Of a DNA stretch of 64,000 nucleotides, positions 32,859 to 43,240 are shown one piece after another; the first letter of the stretch is position 1, and each line of letters begins with the position of its first letter. Under the pieces are notes generated by a model that saw only the letters and a program-made list of their open reading frames with translations, had not been told where the DNA came from and ran no database searches. The position numbers and the translations under genes were made by a program. The stretch covers positions 17,186-81,185 of the forward strand of contig SVPN01000004.1 in NCBI GenBank assembly GCA_015065805.1, written 5' to 3'. Source of the DNA: Oscillospiraceae bacterium (lineage in GTDB: Bacteria > Bacillota > Clostridia > Oscillospirales > Acutalibacteraceae).

Positions 32859-33944
32859 ATGTCGAACAGATTATTTCAGGGCGTTGTTCATCAGATGCGT
32901 GATGCGATCGACCGCACCATCGGTGTGATCGACGAAACCGCTTCCATCATTGCCTGCAGTGACCTCGGCCGCGTGGGCGAGCTCAGCACTGCCGTTACCG
33001 CCGATTCCTTTACGGAAACCGATACGTTTATCAGCGGCGACTACACCTTCAAGCCGTTCGGTTCGCATCCTCACGCGGAGTACATTCTGTTTGTCAGCGG
33101 TACGGATGAGCAAGCGGCAAAATACGCCTCGCTTCTTTCCGTCTCGCTCTCAAGCATCAAGCAATACTATGATGAAAAATACGATCGCGGTAATTTTGTC
33201 AAGAACATCATTCTGGACAATATCCTGCCCGGTGACATCTATCTGAAAGCACGCGAACTGCATTTCAACAACGATGTCAGCCGCGTGGTTCTGCTCATCC
33301 GCATCTCCAACCGCACGGACATCTCCACCTTTGATGTGGTGCAGAACCTCTTCCCCGACAAAACCAAGGACTTCGTCATCAACATCAGCGAAAACGACAT
33401 TGCCCTGGTTAAGGAAGTACGCTCCAACATCGACTCGGCACATCTTGAAAAGCTCGCCCGCTCCATCGTCGATACTCTCGGCAGTGAGTTCTATACCCCT
33501 GCCACCGTCGGCATCGGCACCGTTGTCGAAGGCATCAAGGATCTGGCGCGTTCGTTCAAGGAAGCGCAGGTTGCCTTGGAGGTCGGTAAGGTGTTCGACA
33601 CCGAAAAAACCATCTGCAGCTACGACAACCTGGGCATCGCCCGCCTGATTTATCAGTTGCCCACCACGCTTTGCGAAATGTTCCTGCGTGAGGTGTTCAA
33701 GAAGAGCTCCATCGATTCGTTGGATCAGGAGACCCTTTTCACCATTCAGCGCTTCTTTGAAAACAACCTGAACGTTTCGGAAACCTCCCGCAGACTGTTC
33801 GTGCACCGCAACACACTGGTGTATCGCCTTGAAAAGATCAAGCGTCTGACCGGTCTTGATCTGCGCGAATTTGATGACGCGATCGTCTTCAAAGTGGCAT
33901 TGATGGTCAAAAAGTATCTGCAGGCGAACCCCGTGAAATATTGA
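32859..33944 (+). CDS. CdaR/PucR family transcriptional regulator
   Basis: C-terminal PucR-type HTH (NVSETSRRLFVHRNTLVYRLEKIKRLTGLDLREFDD). Length is 361 aa. Confidence 0.8.
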   Translation: MSNRLFQGVVHQMRDAIDRTIGVIDETASIIACSDLGRVGELSTAVTADSFTETDTFISGDYTFKPFGSHPHAEYILFVSGTDEQAAKYASLLSVSLSSIKQYYDEKYDRGNFVKNIILDNILPGDIYLKARELHFNNDVSRVVLLIRISNRTDISTFDVVQNLFPDKTKDFVINISENDIALVKEVRSNIDSAHLEKLARSIVDTLGSEFYTPATVGIGTVVEGIKDLARSFKEAQVALEVGKVFDTEKTICSYDNLGIARLIYQLPTTLCEMFLREVFKKSSIDSLDQETLFTIQRFFENNLNVSETSRRLFVHRNTLVYRLEKIKRLTGLDLREFDDAIVFKVALMVKKYLQANPVKY

Positions 33945-34130: not shown

Positions 34131-34952
34131 TTGATCGAGTTCAGAGGCGTGCATAAAACATATGATAACGGCACAAAGGCGCTGCGCGATGTCAACATCA
34201 ACATCGAAAAGGGCGAATTTGTGTTTATCGTCGGCTCCTCGGGCGCCGGCAAATCCACCTTTCTCAAGCTCATTATGCGCGAGGAGGTTCCCAACGCCGG
34301 TGAGGTGATCGTCAACGGCTACAAGCTCTCGAAGCTTAAGCGCCGCGAGATCCCGTATTTCCGCCGTACGATGGGCATCGTGTTTCAGGATTTCCGCCTG
34401 ATCCCCACGATGAACGTGTTTGACAACGTGGCGTTTGCTATGCGCGTAACGGGTGCATCCAAGCGCGAGGTGCGCAAACGTGTCCCCTATATTTTGGGAC
34501 TTGTCGGTCTGCAGAATAAAGCTCGTTGCTTCCCGCAGGAGCTGTCGGGCGGCGAACAGCAGCGTGTCAGCCTGGCACGTGCACTTGTCAACAACCCTTC
34601 GCTGATCATCGCGGACGAGCCCACGGGTAATATCGACCCCGAAATGTCCTATGAAATTATGGAGCTTCTCACCGAGATCAACCGCCGCGGCACGACCATC
34701 CTGGTGGTCACGCACGAGCACGATCTGGTGCAGGCATTCAAGCGCCGTGTCATCGTGATCGACGGCGGTACGGTCGTATCCGATGTCCCGCAGGAGGACA
34801 ATGCCGAAACACCGCCCACAGCAGGAAGCGACGTCGTCTCGGATGTGCTGGATACCATTCAGGAAACCGCGGCACCCGAAACCGATCCCGTGGATGCAGT
34901 GCTTGCGGACTTTGCAAGCGATTATAAGGCAAACGGAGGTGACGCACAATGA
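34131..34952 (+). CDS. ftsE: Cell division ATP-binding protein FtsE (with ~45-aa acidic C-terminal extension)
   Basis: TTG start after AAAGGAGGTG. It has Walker [10 protein letters not shown], signature LSGGEQQR and Walker [12 protein letters not shown], and overlaps ftsX by 4 nt. Confidence 0.9.
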
Positions 34953-35869
34953 AGCTGAGCAGTCTCGGATATCTCATCAAAGAAGGCTTTCGCAACATCA
35001 AGCAAAACAGCTTTATGTCCATCGCCTCCGTGCTGGTGCTGGTTTCCTGCCTGTTGCTGTCGGGTGCCGCCTATCTCGTGTTTGTCAACGTGGAATACGG
35101 CTTTGAATGGGCGTACGACCAGAACATCGCCATTGTCTGGGCAACAGAGGATGTTGACGAGGCACAGCTGACAACGCTCGGCGATCAGTTGCGTTCCCTC
35201 AACAACGTCGGCAGTGTGGAATTCATTTCCAAAGAACAGGTTCTGCAGGATTACACCAACCAGATCCCCGAAGCGACCTTTGAGTCGTTGCAGGGAGAAA
35301 ACAACCCGATGCTCGACGCCTACAAGGTCACCTTTGTGGATCTGAACCTTGCCACACAGACGCTGGATCAGATCCGTACCTTTGAGAATGTCGATGATAT
35401 CTCCTACTACGCCGACGTTGCGCAGGTTCTTGTGTCCATCCGCAACGCCGTGATGAAGATCGGCGGTTGCATCATTGCCATGCTGCTGTTCGTGTCCCTT
35501 TTCATCATCTCCAACACCATCAAGCTGACGGTGTACAGCCGCCGCCTGGAGATCGGTATTATGAAATCGGTCGGTGCAACCAAAGCGTTCATCCGACTGC
35601 CCTTTATGGTGGAAGGTATGGTGCTCGGCTTCTGCGCGGGCTCTCTTGCCTTCGGTATTCTCTATTTTGTCTATGCACGACTGATCACGGTGCCCATCGG
35701 ACAGATCCAATTTGTGTCGATGTCCGTTGAGGGTATGCTGGCGACATTCCCCGTGTGGGCGGAACTGCTGGTCGGCTTCCTGCTGATCGGTACGCTGACG
35801 GGTATGATCGGCAGCGGCATCTCCATCGGTCGTTACCTGAAAGAAGAAAGCGGTGTCTCAGTTGACTGA
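34949..35869 (+). CDS. ftsX: Cell division permease FtsX
   Basis: IKEGFRNIKQN N-terminus, a large extracellular loop after TM1 and a C-terminal FtsX permease domain with 3 TM segments. Confidence 0.9.
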   Translation: MKLSSLGYLIKEGFRNIKQNSFMSIASVLVLVSCLLLSGAAYLVFVNVEYGFEWAYDQNIAIVWATEDVDEAQLTTLGDQLRSLNNVGSVEFISKEQVLQDYTNQIPEATFESLQGENNPMLDAYKVTFVDLNLATQTLDQIRTFENVDDISYYADVAQVLVSIRNAVMKIGGCIIAMLLFVSLFIISNTIKLTVYSRRLEIGIMKSVGATKAFIRLPFMVEGMVLGFCAGSLAFGILYFVYARLITVPIGQIQFVSMSVEGMLATFPVWAELLVGFLLIGTLTGMIGSGISIGRYLKEESGVSVD

Positions 35870-37445
35870 TCTGTTGAAAAACAGACAAATCCGAATATTC
35901 GTACTTCGCGCGATCGCTTTGGTGCTTTGCACAGCGATGCTTCTTTCGCTGTGCCCGAACAGCTCCTTTTCCGCCCCTGCTGTCTATGCGCAGGGATCGG
36001 TGGAGGATCTGACCGCACAAAAAGAAGCGCTTGCCGCCGAGCAAGCGTTGCTTGCTCAGCAACGCGATGAAACCGCTTCTTCCCTGGAAGAACAAAAACT
36101 CCAGGACGAGATCATTCGCAAACAGATCGAAGCCAAATCCGAAGAGATCGGCATCAACCAGGCGTTGTTAGCCGCCCTTGAGGAAGCGATCGCCTCGAAA
36201 ACCGCGGGCATCGCCGCGCAGGACAGCGCCATCGCCGCACTGGATAAGGAAATCGCACAACAGCAAGCGGATCTGCGCGTTCAGCTGCGCGGCATCTCGC
36301 AAAAAAACGGTGTGCTGTCGGTTCTTCAGCTGATCCTCAACAGCAGTACATACACCGAATATCTCATCGGCTTTAAGGTGTCTGAGCAGATTTCTCAGCG
36401 AAACGAACAGCTTCTGATGCAGCTTGAGCAAAACATCCAAGCCGCTCAAAACGCACGCAACACCCTCAAGACCGACAAGGCGGCGCTGGAGATCGAACAC
36501 TCTCAGGCCGCCGCTGTGCAGGCGGAGCTGGAAAACGGCAAAGCCCACCTGCAACAGCTTTACAACGAATCCCACGCTTTGTCCGAGCAGATGGAGCAAA
36601 ACGTTGAATACCTCAACGAACAGATCGCCGTTATGGAGCAAGAGCAGGCGTATATGCAAAGCACCATTGAGGCGATCAAGGAGCAGATCCGTCTGGAAGA
36701 AGAGGCAAAGCGCCGTGAGGAAGAGGAAAAGAGACGTCAGGAGGAAGAAGAGCAAAAGCGTCTGGAAGAGGAACAGCGCCGTGAAGAGGAAGAAAACGGT
36801 GACAACGAAAGCTCCGATGACGAAAGCTCCGATGACGAAAGCTCCGATGACGACGAGGATCCCTCCGAGGATACCGGATCCGACGGCGAAGACGGCACCG
36901 AGGATGAAAACGATCCCGAGGACGATCCCGAAGATGACTCCGAGGACGATCCCGAGGATGACTCCGAGAACGATTCTGAAGACTCTTCGCTTGAAACAAT
37001 GCTTTGGCCCGCTCCCACCTGCCTTGTGATCACCAGCAGCTTTAAACTCCGTGATCTTGAAGAGGACAGCGCGGGTGCCAAATGGCACAACGGTGTGGAT
37101 ATCGCCTGCTACGGTGATGCCGAAGGCGAACCGATCATTGCCGCCGCATCGGGCAAAGTCCGCGTGTCCAACCGCTACGATTCCTACGGCGGCGGATACG
37201 GATATTACACCACGATCGACCACGGCTACGATTCCTACGGCCGACGCATCATCACTCTATACGCCCACTGCAGTGAAGTCCTCGTGTACGAAGGACAGGA
37301 AGTGGAAGCAGGCGAAGTGATCGGCTATGTCGGCAACACGGGCAACTCCTACGGTGCCCACCTGCACTTTGAGGTGCTTGTGGATTTTGTTGCCGTCGAT
37401 CCTACCGACTACCTTGACATCAGCGATATCGACATTTTGGGCTAA
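35853..37445 (+). CDS. Coiled-coil M23 (LytM-type) metallopeptidase, EnvC/PcsB-like candidate FtsEX partner, paralog 1
   Basis: Signal anchor, about 270 aa of heptad-rich coiled coil, then an acidic low-complexity linker and an M23 domain with HxxxD (WHNGVD), YAHC and HxH (AHLHFEV). The GTG start overlaps ftsX; a TTG at 35874 is an alternative start. Confidence 0.85.
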   Translation: MSQLTDLLKNRQIRIFVLRAIALVLCTAMLLSLCPNSSFSAPAVYAQGSVEDLTAQKEALAAEQALLAQQRDETASSLEEQKLQDEIIRKQIEAKSEEIGINQALLAALEEAIASKTAGIAAQDSAIAALDKEIAQQQADLRVQLRGISQKNGVLSVLQLILNSSTYTEYLIGFKVSEQISQRNEQLLMQLEQNIQAAQNARNTLKTDKAALEIEHSQAAAVQAELENGKAHLQQLYNESHALSEQMEQNVEYLNEQIAVMEQEQAYMQSTIEAIKEQIRLEEEAKRREEEEKRRQEEEEQKRLEEEQRREEEENGDNESSDDESSDDESSDDDEDPSEDTGSDGEDGTEDENDPEDDPEDDSEDDPEDDSENDSEDSSLETMLWPAPTCLVITSSFKLRDLEEDSAGAKWHNGVDIACYGDAEGEPIIAAASGKVRVSNRYDSYGGGYGYYTTIDHGYDSYGRRIITLYAHCSEVLVYEGQEVEAGEVIGYVGNTGNSYGAHLHFEVLVDFVAVDPTDYLDISDIDILG

Positions 37446-37481
37446 GCCCTTCGTGCTATAATTCAGAAAGTAGGTACTTTT

Positions 37482-38798
37482 GTGTTCGATTCTTACAAAT
37501 CATTCGCTTTGCGCATACTTTGTGTTCTGTTATCCCTTGCCTTGCTGGCGGGCAGTGCGGTCTGCGTATATGCAGAGGACAGCATCGACGAACTGACTTC
37601 ACAAAAGGACGATCTTGCTCTTCGTCAGGAAGAGCTTGCCGCCAAGCGCGACGAAGCGGCTGCTTCGCTGGAAGAACAACAGGAGCAAAGCAATGTGATC
37701 CGTGAGCAGATTGCCGCAAAGTCCGAGGAGATCGCACTCAACGAACAAATCCTGACAGAACTGGACCGAAAGATCCGAAACACCTCGGAGATGATCGCCT
37801 CAAAAGAGGAAGAAATTGCAAAGCGGGAACAGGAAATCCATCTGCGCCGCGAGACCCTTCGCACACGTCTGCGTGCCATCTCAAAAAAGAGTGTGTTGTT
37901 GTCCTTTTTTCAGTTCCTGTTCGGCAGAAATTCTTATGCGGATTTTTTGATGGGGTTTAAAGTGACCGAACGTGTCTCCGAAAACGACCAACAGATGATG
38001 GATGCACTGGAAGCCGACATCGCCGCACTGGAAACCGCCAAAAACAAGCTCAAAACCGACAAGGCCGCTCTGGAGATCGAACGCAGTCAGGCGGAAGCGA
38101 TCCGTAACGATACAGCACAAGACAAAGATTCTCTCCAACAGCTTTACAACGAATCCGACGCACTCGCGCAGGAAATGGCACAGGATGTGAACTACCTGCA
38201 ACATCAACTCGATGAAACCCTCTCAAAGCAACAAGCGCTTCAGACGGAGATCGATGCGATTCTTGAACGTATTCGTGCCGAAGAAGAAGCCGCACGCAAG
38301 GAAGCGGAAGAAAACGGCGAGGAATACCGTCCTTCCGATGACCTGATCTTCACGGGAAACGGCGACGGCACCATGCTTTGGCCGACTCCCACCTGTCCCG
38401 TCATCACCAGCAGCTTCGGCTGGCGCGAATGGAGCGAGACCTGGCACAAGGGCATTGATATTGCGTGCTACGGTGACGCCGAAGGAGAACCGATTGTTGC
38501 CGCGGCAGACGGGGTCGTCCACGTATTCTATGACGAATACGGCTACGGCAATTATATCACAATTGACCACGGCTATGACAGCGACGGTTGCCGTGTTCTG
38601 ACGGTGTATGCCCACTGCAGTCGTGTAGATGTCTCCTACGGCGATACCGTTACCGCCGGTCAACAGATCGGTCTTGTGGGAGACACCGGCAGATCCGATG
38701 GTGCTCATCTCCATTTTGAGGTCAATATTGACGGTGTCGCCGTTGATCCGATCTCAAACGGCTATCTGACAACGGACGGCATCGACGTCCTGAACTGA
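37482..38798 (+). CDS. Coiled-coil M23 metallopeptidase, paralog 2
   Basis: Same architecture as paralog 1: WHKGID, YAHC, AHLHFEV. The GTG start follows AGAAAGTAGGT. Confidence 0.85.
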   Translation: MFDSYKSFALRILCVLLSLALLAGSAVCVYAEDSIDELTSQKDDLALRQEELAAKRDEAAASLEEQQEQSNVIREQIAAKSEEIALNEQILTELDRKIRNTSEMIASKEEEIAKREQEIHLRRETLRTRLRAISKKSVLLSFFQFLFGRNSYADFLMGFKVTERVSENDQQMMDALEADIAALETAKNKLKTDKAALEIERSQAEAIRNDTAQDKDSLQQLYNESDALAQEMAQDVNYLQHQLDETLSKQQALQTEIDAILERIRAEEEAARKEAEENGEEYRPSDDLIFTGNGDGTMLWPTPTCPVITSSFGWREWSETWHKGIDIACYGDAEGEPIVAAADGVVHVFYDEYGYGNYITIDHGYDSDGCRVLTVYAHCSRVDVSYGDTVTAGQQIGLVGDTGRSDGAHLHFEVNIDGVAVDPISNGYLTTDGIDVLN

Positions 38799-38831
38799 TC
38801 TGCCGCATATTACCACACAGCGACCCTCTCT

Positions 38832-40148
38832 TTGTCGCTGTATCGAGAAAGTAGGTGTTGCGATTTGAATCGTGTATTCTGTGTCGCTCAACCGTTTATA
38901 AAATGTCTGTGTGTTCTGCTGGCTATGTCGGTGCTTCTCAGCTCCGTTTCCGTATTTTGGGAGAACGCTCCCGCTTCGGTTTGCGTTTCTGCAGAGGAAA
39001 GCGAAGAGGAACTGCGTGATCAGAAGGAAGAACTGCAACAAAAGCAGGAGGAGTTAGAGGCACTTCGGAACGAATCCGCCGCCACACTCGAAGAGCAGGA
39101 AGCACAAAAGGATATCATCTCCGAACAAATCGCTCTGAAAATTGAAGAGATCGAACTCAATCAACAGCTTGTCAACGAGATGGATGCCAAAATCGAGGAT
39201 GCCAATTATCAGATCGCCCTCAAACAGCAATCCATCGCCGAAAAGGAAGCCGAGATCGCCGTGGCTTTTGAAGCACTGCAGGTTCGCCTTCGCGCCCTCT
39301 CCAAAACCGGCTCTCTCACCTCTCTCCTTCAGATGATCATCAGCTCCGACGGTTTTCTTGATTATCTCCTGAAAGCCAAGGCAATGCAACGTCTTGCAAA
39401 AGAAAACGAACGCCTGATGCAGGAGCTGGAAGGCGAAATGCAGGCGATCAATGCACAAAAAGATGCTTTGGAAGCAGAAAAAGCCAAGATCGAAGAGGAA
39501 CGCAAGCCGATCGTTCAGCTCCAGACAGACCTGAACAACGCCAAGATGGACCTGGATGTGCTTTACAGTGAGGCAAACGCCATCACCGAAAAGCTTAACC
39601 AGGACATTGATCATTACAACGCCGCCATCGCACAATCCGAAGCGGATCAGGCGGCACTGGAAGAAAAGATCAACGAGCTGCTGATGCAAAACGCCGGCAG
39701 CGGTCAGGCATACCTGAGCGGCTCGATGTACTGGCCCGCTCCCAGCTGTAACTACATCTCCTCCACCTTCAAGTTCCGCTGGGGCAAATGGCACAACGGC
39801 ATCGACATCTGCGGCGGCGGTTGCTACGGCACCTCCGTTGTAGCGGGTGCCGACGGTATCGTCACCTACGCCGACTGGATGAGCGGCTACGGCTGGTGTG
39901 TGATCGTGGATCACGGTACCGATTCCAACGGCTACAACGTTACCACCCTGTACGCACACTGCGCCGAGCTGTATGTGTACGAGGGTCAGTCCGTGTCGGG
40001 CGGCGAAACCATTGCCGCTGTCGGCAGCTCGGGTAATTCCACCGGTCCCCACCTGCATTTTGAGGTGCGTCTTGACGGTTCGGCGGTTGACCCCATCTCC
40101 AACGGCTATGTTTCCACCGGCGGCATCATCATTGACGAGTCGCTGTAA
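38832..40148 (+). CDS. Coiled-coil M23 metallopeptidase, paralog 3
   Basis: Same architecture: WHNGID, YAHC, PHLHFEV. The likely true start is the TTG at 38865, which sits behind the same AGAAAGTAGGT motif seen before paralog 2. Confidence 0.85.
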   Translation: MSLYRESRCCDLNRVFCVAQPFIKCLCVLLAMSVLLSSVSVFWENAPASVCVSAEESEEELRDQKEELQQKQEELEALRNESAATLEEQEAQKDIISEQIALKIEEIELNQQLVNEMDAKIEDANYQIALKQQSIAEKEAEIAVAFEALQVRLRALSKTGSLTSLLQMIISSDGFLDYLLKAKAMQRLAKENERLMQELEGEMQAINAQKDALEAEKAKIEEERKPIVQLQTDLNNAKMDLDVLYSEANAITEKLNQDIDHYNAAIAQSEADQAALEEKINELLMQNAGSGQAYLSGSMYWPAPSCNYISSTFKFRWGKWHNGIDICGGGCYGTSVVAGADGIVTYADWMSGYGWCVIVDHGTDSNGYNVTTLYAHCAELYVYEGQSVSGGETIAAVGSSGNSTGPHLHFEVRLDGSAVDPISNGYVSTGGIIIDESL

Positions 40149-40176
40149 CAGGCTTAACCGAAAGGAACGATTCTTT

Positions 40177-41484
40177 ATGATCCGTTCTTCTTATCTGAAA
40201 ATTGTATTGGCTGTGCAGATCATCGCTCTGGTGATCTGCACATTCCCATACCCTGCCCTTGTCAGCTCGGCACAGGGAACGACCGTTCCGAGCGCACCGC
40301 AATCCATCGGCGAAACCTTTAACCCCGGGGATGCCTCCTATGTGCAATCGCTTGAGGATCAGCGCGCGCAATTACAGCATCAGGCAAACGAATTACAGCA
40401 AGCGCGCCAATTCTATTCTGATTCCTTAGACGGTCTGATCCAGCAAAAAGACAACATCGAAAAGCAGATCACGCTCAAGCAACAGGAGATCGACATCAAT
40501 GCGCTTATTTTGGAAAGCCTCAATGCGCAGATCGACATCACCGACGAACAGCTGATCCTCGCTGAACAAACGATGCTTCTCAAGCGCCAGACCCTGCTGA
40601 CGCGCTTTGAAGAATTGCGTCAAAAGCTCCGCGATCTGTCCAAGGGCGGCAGTATGACGCCGATTCAGATGCTGTTGAATACCGATAGCTTCACGAGCTT
40701 TCTCATCAATATGAAAATGGCATCCCGTATTTCGCAGGCTGATCAGCAAGCGATCAGTGCTCTGGAAACGGAGCTTGCCGAAGTACAGGCACAGCAGGAA
40801 GAGCTGTCACAACAGCAGACCCGTCTTGAGGAAGCGCGCCGACCGCACGAAGCCGCCTCTGTCGAGCTGGAAATCGCCAAAACAGAGCTGCTGTCGCTTC
40901 ACGCGGAATCGATAAAGATCGAAGATATGCTCTCGGAAAACCTGACCTATTACCGCACGCAGTATCTGGAGCTTCTCAACGAACAGCGTAAGCTGCATCT
41001 GCAGCTCACCGATATCCTCGGCAAATACGATATGAGCGGTGTTGCCGCCCCGACCCTGATGTTCTGGCCGACACCCGAATGCACCATTATCACCAGCTCC
41101 TATAAAGCACGCTGGGGCAAGTGGCACTACGGTCTGGACATCGCCTGCTACGGTGACGCAACAGGCAAGTCGGTTCTTGCCGCGGCAGACGGCACCGTGA
41201 TTTTTGCGGGCTATGACGAAAGCGGCTACGGCAATTATGTCATCATCGATCACGGCTACGATGTGTTCGGCAGACGCGTTGTCACTTTGTACGGACATTG
41301 CCACGAATTACTTGTCAAAGAGGGCGACATCGTGCTCGGCGGTCAGACCCGCATCGCCCTTGTGGGAGATACCGGCCGTTCCTCGGGCGCACATCTGCAT
41401 TTTGAGGTGCGCCTTGACGGCTCAGCAGTTGACCCCGTCGGCGAAGGCTTCGTGCTCACCGACAACATCGCCATCGTCGGGTGA
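40177..41484 (+). CDS. Coiled-coil M23 metallopeptidase, paralog 4
   Basis: ORF 39973 trimmed to the ATG at 40177 (MIRSSYLKIVLAV..., signal anchor). It has WHYGLD, YGHC and AHLHFEV. Confidence 0.85.
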   Translation: MIRSSYLKIVLAVQIIALVICTFPYPALVSSAQGTTVPSAPQSIGETFNPGDASYVQSLEDQRAQLQHQANELQQARQFYSDSLDGLIQQKDNIEKQITLKQQEIDINALILESLNAQIDITDEQLILAEQTMLLKRQTLLTRFEELRQKLRDLSKGGSMTPIQMLLNTDSFTSFLINMKMASRISQADQQAISALETELAEVQAQQEELSQQQTRLEEARRPHEAASVELEIAKTELLSLHAESIKIEDMLSENLTYYRTQYLELLNEQRKLHLQLTDILGKYDMSGVAAPTLMFWPTPECTIITSSYKARWGKWHYGLDIACYGDATGKSVLAAADGTVIFAGYDESGYGNYVIIDHGYDVFGRRVVTLYGHCHELLVKEGDIVLGGQTRIALVGDTGRSSGAHLHFEVRLDGSAVDPVGEGFVLTDNIAIVG

Positions 41485-41563: not shown

Positions 41564-43240
41564 ATGAAAGGCGTGCTGTTTATGTCTGACTCCAAGCCGA
41601 TGGAAATTGCTCTGGATCCCAACTTTAAAGATGTTCCCGCACCGTTTGATCCCAAAAAAGAATTGCGTGAAGGTGACCCCTTCATTTTTGTGAGTTATTC
41701 ACATCACAATAAAGCACAGGTCTATCCGGTTCTCGATTATCTCCATAACGAAAAAAAATTCCACATCTGGTATGACCCTGCTATGGAATGTGGCGTTCAG
41801 GATTTCCGCGATGAATTACGCAGAAAAATCGAAAGCTGTACAGCTGTTCTTCTGTTCGTTTCCAAAGAATCGATGTCCTCTATCTACTGCGGTATGGAAA
41901 TTATCGTGGCACAAGAGAACCAAAAACCGTTTTATATCGTCCGTCTTGACAAAACCGAATATCCTCCCGCTTTCGAGATTCTGCTCGGAAAAATCCACGC
42001 AATTGACGGAACAAATCCCCAGGCTGCCGGCCGCGATCTCAAAGATGTTCTTCCCCCGGAAACAATGGAACGCCTGATTTACGAAGGCAATGTATTGACA
42101 AGCTGCGAACATTACGGTGCTACTATTGAAATCGGAAAAGAAGCCAGTTTTATCGGTGACAGTGCTTTTCACGGTAATCTCACGCTGGAGAACATCTCCT
42201 TCCCCGAAACGATCCGTGCAATCGGAAAGGAAAGCTTCCGCGGATGCACGAATCTGACCGAAATTCTGATTCCGTATGCAACCGAACGCATCGGTGAAAG
42301 CGCATTCCGCGACTGCACAAGTCTGAAGAAACTGGTTGTGCAAAATCAGTGCATCAAGATCGGCGAGCGAGCTTTTGAAAACTGCTCCACCCTTGAGGAT
42401 GTTCAACTCCCCGAAGGCCTGACCGAGATTTACGGCGGTGTCTTTAACAGTTGCCGCGGCCTGAAACATATTACTCTTCCTAAAATGTTGACTGTTCTCG
42501 GCGAAAGTGCATTTTCGGATTGTTCAAGCCTCACAGATATCGACATTCCCGCCTCCGTAACCAAGATCGACGATCTGGTTTTTAACGGGTGTACTAAACT
42601 GACAACCATCACTCTTCACGAAGGCTTGAAAAAGATCGGTAAAGGTGCTTTCAAAAATTGCTCGGTACTGGAAGAAGTTGAAATCCCGGCGTCTGTTTCA
42701 TTGATCAATGACGCTGTATTCCGCGGCTGTAAAGCTTTGTTTTCCATTAAGGTTTCGCCGAAAAACAAACATTATAAATCTGAGTTGACTTGTCTGGAAG
42801 GTTCTCGTTCTCACGTTCTGTTCAACAAAAACAAGTCCATCTTACTCGCCTACCCGGGTGCCGTTGTTGAGCAGGATTATACCGTCCCCGACAGTGTTGT
42901 TACGATCAGTGACTGGGCCTTCTGCGAAGCAAGAAATCTGTCTAAGGTGATCATTCCCGACAGTGTACAGTCCATCGGTGAAGGTGCATTCTGCAATTGC
43001 ACCAATTTGCTTAGGGTATCGATTCCCGATTCCGTTACACAAATTGATGATTGTGCTTTCCGCGGATGCAGCGGCTTGAAGGAAATCCACATTCCCTCTT
43101 CGGTCGTTGAATTCGGTTGGGGTGTGTTTGACGGTTGTGATGAGCAGCTGAAAGTGTACTGTGAAATGGGTTCTGCGATTGACACCTATTGCAAAGGAAA
43201 CCGTATCAACACGGTATATTTAGATAAAGTTGAGGCATAA
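41564..43240 (+). CDS. Cytosolic TIR domain protein fused to BspA-type leucine-rich repeats
   Basis: Residues ~38-130 are a TIR_2-like domain: PFIFVSYSHHNK...HIWYD...AVLLFVSKESMSSIYCGMEIIVA...PFYIVRL, with candidate catalytic Glu112 (nt 41897-41899). Residues ~185-545 hold about 14 repeats of the I..AF..C..L..I.IP.SV..I pattern (LRR_5/BspA type). No signal peptide or TM segment. An alternative start ATG at 41582 has a better SD (GAAAGG). Confidence 0.8.
   Translation: MKGVLFMSDSKPMEIALDPNFKDVPAPFDPKKELREGDPFIFVSYSHHNKAQVYPVLDYLHNEKKFHIWYDPAMECGVQDFRDELRRKIESCTAVLLFVSKESMSSIYCGMEIIVAQENQKPFYIVRLDKTEYPPAFEILLGKIHAIDGTNPQAAGRDLKDVLPPETMERLIYEGNVLTSCEHYGATIEIGKEASFIGDSAFHGNLTLENISFPETIRAIGKESFRGCTNLTEILIPYATERIGESAFRDCTSLKKLVVQNQCIKIGERAFENCSTLEDVQLPEGLTEIYGGVFNSCRGLKHITLPKMLTVLGESAFSDCSSLTDIDIPASVTKIDDLVFNGCTKLTTITLHEGLKKIGKGAFKNCSVLEEVEIPASVSLINDAVFRGCKALFSIKVSPKNKHYKSELTCLEGSRSHVLFNKNKSILLAYPGAVVEQDYTVPDSVVTISDWAFCEARNLSKVIIPDSVQSIGEGAFCNCTNLLRVSIPDSVTQIDDCAFRGCSGLKEIHIPSSVVEFGWGVFDGCDEQLKVYCEMGSAIDTYCKGNRINTVYLDKVEA

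Follow-up and report, generated by a model that had tools for sequence, protein, structure and literature searches.

A 64,000-nucleotide (nt) stretch of contig SVPN01000004.1 (positions 17,186 to 81,185; the whole stretch is hereafter called the window) from the Oscillospiraceae assembly GCA_015065805.1 carries one ftsE-ftsX pair followed directly by four tandem genes for coiled-coil proteins with a C-terminal M23 peptidase domain. Their products, named paralogs A1, A2, B and C in gene order, are predicted to be EnvC-fold proteins, in which an antiparallel coiled-coil hairpin of the EnvC/PcsB type is joined to an M23 domain, and all four keep an intact set of catalytic residues. We propose that several FtsEX-gated endopeptidases share one FtsX in this bacterium, with labor divided by the proteins themselves rather than by the timing of their expression, a reading of sequence and predicted structure to which we give a probability slightly above one half (about 0.55).

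To our knowledge, all solved and genetically studied FtsEX systems consist of one ABC "mechanotransmitter" and one coiled-coil partner, and our literature search found no paper on several EnvC-like partners behind one ftsEX, nor on an active EnvC-fold enzyme in Firmicutes. We regard the locus as a known module (FtsEX-EnvC/PcsB) with a new feature, a multi-copy, catalytically intact set of EnvC-fold partners, and not as a new type of system. Three or four such intact proteins encoded behind one ftsEX form an array that a genus has retained and that has arisen again in other gut Clostridia. For work on FtsEX this is a natural example of multiple partners, and it comes with an idea on tether length that can be tested. 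It raises the questions of how several partners share one FtsX dimer, of the EnvC fold as a direct hydrolase in Gram-positive bacteria, and of whether tether length and groove loops divide the labor of splitting a thick wall. The hosts belong to the common anaerobes of the gut, which have received little study, not least as to how their wall hydrolases are controlled.

Architecture and catalytic residues of the four paralogs

The host genome is a gut metagenome-assembled genome (MAG) of the Acutalibacteraceae (Oscillospirales), 1.77 Mb in 56 contigs and 78.6% complete, in which the window's contig is labelled C50. Pfam and NCBIfam profiles confirmed six open reading frames (ORFs) on the plus strand of the window, comprising ftsE, ftsX and four consecutive M23 genes directly behind them (Table 1), just as an original prediction made from the bare sequence had proposed. 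The direct linkage of coiled-coil M23 genes to ftsEX is conserved across 59 loci. The Peptidase_M23 profile scores 88.9, 100.6, 98.6 and 94.2 bits for A1, A2, B and C, all above the cutoff of 28.7, and by Pfam all four end in an M23 domain, not in the CHAP domain of PcsB-type partners. Six M23 matches were found in the host genome, namely the four array copies and two short proteins (228 and 246 amino acids [aa]) encoded elsewhere.

M23 enzymes such as LytM and lysostaphin carry HxxxD and HxH motifs plus an additional catalytic histidine. The residues H412, D416, H472, H503 and H505 (A1 numbering) are invariant across the four paralogs, bearing out the earlier claim that the catalytic motifs are intact in every copy, and 68 of the 69 family members, drawn from the 59 loci, retain the same H-D-H-H-H set, the lone exception being a long-branch single-copy protein. 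Three cysteines, C390, C419 and C473 in A1, are also invariant in the four M23 domains, where they lie in WPxPxC, in DIxC and in AHC beside the catalytic histidine, a feature unusual for an exported enzyme.

Read from sequence, the N-termini finish with VYA, VYA, VSA and SSA (A1, A2, B and C) behind a hydrophobic stretch. They resemble cleavable signal peptides more than anchors, and the four proteins appear to be exported. The architecture originally described for all four, a signal anchor, about 270 aa of coiled coil and an M23 domain, stands for the coiled coil and the C-terminal M23 domain, but a cleavable signal peptide is likelier than an anchor and the coiled-coil part measures only about 230 to 250 aa.

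A family profile built from the 69 members and searched against solved structures matched the EnvC chains 8i6o_E, 8tzk_E, 8hd0_E and 6tpi_A over positions 46 to 409 at E values of 1e-44 to 1e-46, with a weaker match to the PcsB stalk 4cgk_A (3.9e-06). The AlphaFold2 (AF2) model of A2 (predicted local distance difference test score [pLDDT], 88) consists of a signal helix, helices at residues 63 to 135, 138 to 148 (a short, joining helix), 152 to 233 and 236 to 277, and then the M23 fold, the last of these helices standing at the position of the EnvC restraining arm; its best Foldseek matches were 8tzl_E, from the Vibrio cholerae FtsEX-EnvC complex, and 6tpi_A, Escherichia coli EnvC in complex with the periplasmic domain of FtsX. 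The A1 model (pLDDT, 81) has helices at 78 to 150 and 167 to 315, a disordered stretch at 317 to 380, and then the M23 fold. In both monomer models the stalk forms a closed intramolecular hairpin.

Age and spread of the array

To place the four copies we used 65 species-level ftsX loci with their flanks (numbered with the prefix L), in which coiled-coil M23 genes were called by profiles from the four window paralogs, and two trees, a broad one of 86 proteins and a careful one of the 34 closest. The related loci belong to Acutalibacteraceae, Oscillospirales and "Clostridia bacterium" MAGs from animal and human guts. Three genus-level paralog clades were recovered in both trees, with support of 97/98 for A, 100/99 for B and 100/100 for C in the 34-protein tree; they occupy array positions 1, 2 and 3, all post-date the split from a single-copy sister group, and a topology uniting the window's four copies in one clade was rejected (p-AU, 0.0002). 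Clades A, B and C were fixed at the base of the genus, before its diversification, and A was duplicated again later, giving the order A1-A2-B-C in the window. This second duplication of A is common to the window and its closest relative, L011, which lacks copy C, whereas L019 carries A-B-C without A2. A decayed fourth copy was sought in L011 and ruled out, the next gene after its third copy encoding a permease.

The paralogs are 51% (A2), 39% (B) and 36% (C) identical to A1, and a search for gene conversion found no long identical DNA tracts between the four copies, the best short segments being 71 to 89% identical; the array is therefore neither a recent duplication nor an assembly artefact, as had been supposed from the divergence of the four genes. 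Against their orthologues the four copies gave ratios of nonsynonymous to synonymous substitution (dN/dS) of 0.09 to 0.21, beside 0.13 to 0.19 for ftsX; these ratios are rough, as dS exceeds 1 in most comparisons and is near saturation, and they indicate purifying selection on all four copies.

Directly after ftsX, the nine closest species with sequence there (FtsX 66 to 84% identical) carry two or three copies and the next group (FtsX 45 to 55% identical) carries one, while more distant Oscillospirales mostly have one and several have two or three. In the 86-protein tree, separate tandem expansions are seen at least in the clade of L044, L060, L065, L045 and L064, in L049/L043, in L041 and in L063; other Oscillospirales lineages have thus expanded the gene behind ftsEX independently. 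A survey of 300 Oscillospirales genomes of at least 90% completeness with a coiled-coil-only profile, in which no more than eight candidates per genome were scored and whose counts are thus lower bounds, gave no copy in 25 genomes, one in about 247, two in about 24, three in 4 and four in none. Four copies were seen only in the window's own genome and other members of the genus have two or three. It had been said at the outset that the array would be unremarkable if related taxa routinely carried the same four genes with known, separate functions; relatives in the genus do routinely carry three (clades A, B and C), none of them with a known function. In two surveyed genomes of another family, G060 (C1:1718738, 1800889 and 2094133) and G081, three EnvC-like coiled-coil genes are dispersed and not in tandem behind ftsEX.

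Tether length and groove loop

Pairwise identity among the four copies is 52 to 66% in the M23 domain, 25 to 54% in the coiled-coil arms, 30 to 37% at the hairpin tip and 14 to 41% in the helix at the restraining-arm position. As judged from the alignments, what sets the four apart most is the length of the tether between stalk and M23 domain and the loop beside HxxxD.

Tether lengths are 99, 29, 7 and 6 aa for A1, A2, B and C, respectively. In A1 the tether begins with an E/K/R-rich stretch that is predicted with high confidence to be helical and continuous with the stalk (helix 167 to 315), and proceeds through a D/E/S-rich run of about 65 residues whose pLDDT is below 50. The underlying DNA (36699-36982) consists of nested tandem repeats (15 bp × 3.3 at 100% identity; 12/24 bp × 5.4/2.8; and units of 21, 24 and 45 bp). 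Being encoded by short tandem repeats, the tether can easily change in length, probably by slippage, and its orthologues carry other acidic repeat units, such as DSDYEE. Clade-A orthologues have a tether of 68 to 101 aa in six of eight species, while those of clades B and C always measure 6 to 10 aa and those of the single-copy sister group 6 to 11 aa.

A comparable pattern is found in the L044/L060/L065/L045/L064 expansion, where the first copy has a long Thr/Ser-rich tether of 71 to 84 aa and arrays extending past the second gene include at least one later copy with a short one (10 to 16 aa); in L065 and L045 the second copy is long-tethered too (93 and 77 aa, respectively). Some long-tether proteins were seen alone, but at contig ends, and the two members of the L049 pair have tethers of equal length. 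The pattern is suggestive of an independent evolution of the combination of long and short tethers in a second Oscillospirales lineage.

At nine positions the three clades differ by fixed residues, and four of the nine fall at 330 to 336, right after HxxxD. The loop there reads DIACYGDAEGEP in A, DI-CGGGCYGTSV in B and DIACYGDATGKS in the window's C, and the clade C consensus has W at position 330. By homology to LytM-type enzymes, this loop would border the substrate groove.

Start sites and transcription of the array

A Shine-Dalgarno sequence stands before each of the four M23 genes. The window contains exactly two occurrences of the motif AGAAAGTAGGT, whereas from shuffled sequences 0.32 would be expected with one mismatch allowed, and the motif differs by one mismatch from AGAAAGGAGGT, which complements the canonical 16S rRNA 3' tail. 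By this closeness to the 16S rRNA 3'-end complement, the motif is a ribosome-binding site variant and not a regulatory element. It had been reported as an upstream motif shared by the second and third M23 genes; its two occurrences stand, but the second lies within the ORF then reported as the third gene, ahead of an in-frame TTG at 38865. Paralog B more likely starts at this TTG than at 38832, i.e., 33 nt further downstream, so that the gap between A2 and B is 66 nt and not 33. The original statement that gaps are at most 36 nt fails at this one place and holds for the others, which are from 28 nt upward. A1 may likewise start at TTG 35862, preceded by the Shine-Dalgarno-like AGAAAGCGGTG, rather than at GTG 35853, and GAAAGGA precedes the ATG of paralog C at 40177. 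ftsX overlaps ftsE by 4 nt and the A1 gene by 8 to 17 nt.

Scans with a sigma-70 consensus and for terminators found no promoters or terminators between the array genes above shuffle expectation, sporulation-sigma promoters in upstream coding sequence lying outside what these scans cover; the sole sigma-70 match within the array is weak and overlaps the start codon of copy C. From this spacing and these scans, ftsE, ftsX and the four M23 genes look co-transcribed as one operon, which disfavors partner switching at the transcriptional level. Such switching had been the preferred explanation at the outset. In its temporal form, internal promoters would drive different paralogs at separate stages, be it vegetative division, asymmetric septation or engulfment, and the paralogs would replace each other on FtsEX. 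The copies are old and distinct, FtsEX is linked to entry into sporulation in Bacillus subtilis, and the host probably sporulates itself, since its genome carries spo0A and spoIIP. Even so, with gaps of 28 to 66 nt that hold Shine-Dalgarno sites only, no terminators, and a single weak sigma-70 match within the reach of the scans, we consider it unlikely. Of the earlier claims, the description of four potentially active partners for one FtsEX is upheld by the single FtsX, the intact residues and the purifying selection; the switching attached to it is weakened by the operon layout, and the sporulation genes to which a split between vegetative and sporulation use would relate are present.

How one FtsEX might serve four partners

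We favor a mechanism in which the four proteins would be exported and dock alternately, each through its hairpin, on the one FtsEX complex. The M23 domain would remain autoinhibited until the ATPase cycle of FtsE moves the extracellular domains of FtsX and releases it, and the released domain would then cleave peptide links of the peptidoglycan directly, following the logic of PcsB, CwlO and RipC on an EnvC fold. For EnvC, relief of autoinhibition by ATPase-driven movement of FtsX has been proposed as the mechanism, and the same has been predicted for the partners in Gram-positive bacteria (PMC7668044, PMC11627006). The four partners would be likely to dock on the same FtsEX because the genome has one FtsX, a domain search of the MAG (G000, 78.6% complete) having returned a single FtsX_ECD match. 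Since the genes appear to be co-transcribed, we favor simultaneous use, with labor divided by reach (the tether) and by substrate (the groove loop), over expression switching. That the four paralogs bind FtsX, are autoinhibited and act as enzymes we infer by homology.

Several points weigh against this proposal. Docking of the paralogs on FtsX is itself deduced by homology, and a second ftsX outside the assembled part of the MAG is conceivable. A2 and B score above the CC_PcsB cutoff of 27 bits (Table 1), and C (26.2 bits) and A1 (21.7 bits) fall below it. Special conservation of the presumed docking site for FtsX, at the tip of the hairpin, was considered as evidence and dropped, the tip showing 30 to 37% identity versus 25 to 54% in the arms, and the most diverged region of all (14 to 41%) is the helix that stands where EnvC has its restraining arm. 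In the predicted model of A1, some 65 disordered residues part this helix from the M23 domain, and autoinhibition in cis may therefore not be valid for every copy. Near-saturated dS also loosens the dN/dS values given above.

A more specific version, which we put forward only tentatively and with clearly less confidence, is that the array forms a graded series of FtsEX-driven endopeptidases of differing reach, one with a long spacer (a rigid E/K/R helix plus about 65 acidic disordered aa) and the others with spacers of 29, 7 and 6 aa. If it were true, a single membrane switch could cleave the thick wall of a Gram-positive cell at several depths simultaneously.

About as improbable as temporal switching is an arrangement in which only the first copy partners FtsEX, and the later copies are free or otherwise regulated autolysins that keep the ancestral architecture. 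The A1 gene overlaps the ftsX stop codon and is possibly translationally coupled to it, the hairpin tip is no better conserved than the rest of the stalk, and CC_PcsB scores vary between copies, all of which would fit. A stalk without a docking role would, however, be expected to decay or vanish, whereas the full stalk has been kept in all copies by apparent purifying selection over genus-level divergence, and the best CC_PcsB scores belong to B and A2, not to A1.

More doubtful still is that the four proteins are amidase activators like E. coli EnvC and not enzymes, each perhaps serving a different hydrolase. They are full-length EnvC homologues, the genome holds two Amidase_3 genes, and factors of the LytM type, for example DipM, govern several autolysins (PMC10336132). 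Zinc ligands as well as catalytic histidines are nevertheless intact in every array copy, while E. coli EnvC has lost them, with W320, V324 and Y401 at its zinc positions (PMC11627006), and A1, A2, B and C score 25.4, 74.0, 61.6 and 48.2 bits on the NCBIfam EnvC equivalog NF008644, far below its cutoff of 270 bits.

We regard a hetero-oligomeric coiled-coil assembly of all four on one FtsEX complex as very improbable, for although co-transcription would match the amounts of the four proteins and PcsB crystallized as a dimer (4CGK, as cited in PMC11627006), each FtsX dimer in the solved FtsEX-EnvC complexes has a single EnvC on it (PMC11627006), a copy number of two to four within the genus (L011 without C, L019 without A2) is a poor fit to an obligate complex, and the AF2 monomers form closed intramolecular hairpins.

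Relation to described FtsEX systems

The nearest described relative of our proposed set of FtsX-sharing endopeptidases is FtsEX-EnvC of E. coli, V. cholerae and Pseudomonas aeruginosa (PDB 6TPI, 8HD0, 8TZK/8TZL and 8I6O), in which the partner gene has the same context directly after ftsEX and its product shows significant full-length homology and the same fold (a signal peptide, an antiparallel hairpin, and a helix before a C-terminal LytM/M23 domain). The differences are these. In EnvC the LytM domain is degenerate, and the protein activates the amidases AmiA and AmiB, whereas the catalytic residues of the window paralogs are intact; those species have one EnvC per FtsEX, as opposed to four in the window; and the restraining arm of EnvC (residues 222 to 278) runs straight into LytM (278 to 419) (PMC7668044), where A1 has its 99-aa tether.

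PcsB of Streptococcus pneumoniae, CwlO of B. subtilis and RipC of mycobacteria and corynebacteria offer the other comparison, as the partner is itself an autoinhibited hydrolase (PMC7668044), which is the logic we propose for the window paralogs. The CC_PcsB domain matches the hairpin of the window paralogs, and their profile hits the PcsB stalk, but the catalytic domain of these partners is CHAP or NlpC/P60 and not M23, and each of these FtsEX systems has been described with a single partner. Clostridioides difficile is reported to lack FtsEX (PMC12132525).

Annotated features and neighboring genes

The coordinates of the features discussed here are collected in Table 1.

Table 1. Genes and sequence features of the ftsEX array and its upstream neighbor, in window positions
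Feature	Positions	Strand	Evidence	Remarks
PucR-family regulator gene	32859-33944	+	Pfam HTH_30 7e-20, GGDEF_2 1.8e-14	About 361 aa; PucR C-terminal HTH and GGDEF_2-like domain
ftsE	34131-34952	+	TIGR02673 FtsE 293 bits (cutoff 264.85), model match to residues 1-213 of 273; Pfam ABC_tran 1.1e-34	ATPase of the FtsEX complex
ftsX	34949-35869	+	NF038347 FtsX_Gpos 243 bits (cutoff 225); Pfam FtsX_ECD and FtsX	
Paralog A1 (530 aa)	35853-37445	+	Pfam M23 2.6e-25; clade A in both trees	Predicted signal peptide, EnvC-type coiled-coil stalk, 99-aa tether, M23
Tether of A1	36702-36998	+	99 aa, 56% D+E; pLDDT <50 at residues 317-380	Tandem repeats
AGAAAGTAGGT, copy 1	37465-37475	+		Shine-Dalgarno variant, 6 nt ahead of GTG, the start codon of A2
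Paralog A2 (438 aa)	37482-38798	+	Pfam M23 5.7e-29, CC_PcsB 33.3 bits	29-aa tether
AGAAAGTAGGT, copy 2	38846-38856	+		Inside the ORF reported as the third gene; 8 nt upstream of in-frame TTG 38865
Paralog B (427 aa from TTG 38865)	38865-40148	+	Pfam M23 2.4e-28, CC_PcsB 33.5 bits	7-aa tether; ORF open from 38832
Paralog C (435 aa)	40177-41484	+	Pfam M23 5.5e-27	6-aa tether; most diverged copy

The PucR-family gene is the immediate upstream neighbor of ftsE, both in the window and, among loci in the range L011 to L067, in almost every Oscillospirales locus whose upstream flank is long enough. As this pairing is kept across family-level divergence, the PucR-family protein is a candidate that may regulate the ftsEX operon.

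Downstream, the array is followed by a TIR-LRR gene (41564-43240), homologues of which are also present 2 to 3 kb downstream of ftsX at several loci of the single-copy sister group (L020, 7258-9282; L022, 13597-15663; L025, 13591-15651; L024, 4074-4538). The TIR-LRR/ftsEX neighborhood would therefore predate the expansion of the array. In L011 the array is followed only by the permease gene.

FtsE itself carries a C-terminal extension of about 60 aa (residues 214 to 273, encoded at 34770-34952) past the 214-position FtsE model, enriched in acidic residues as well as Pro, Thr and Ala.

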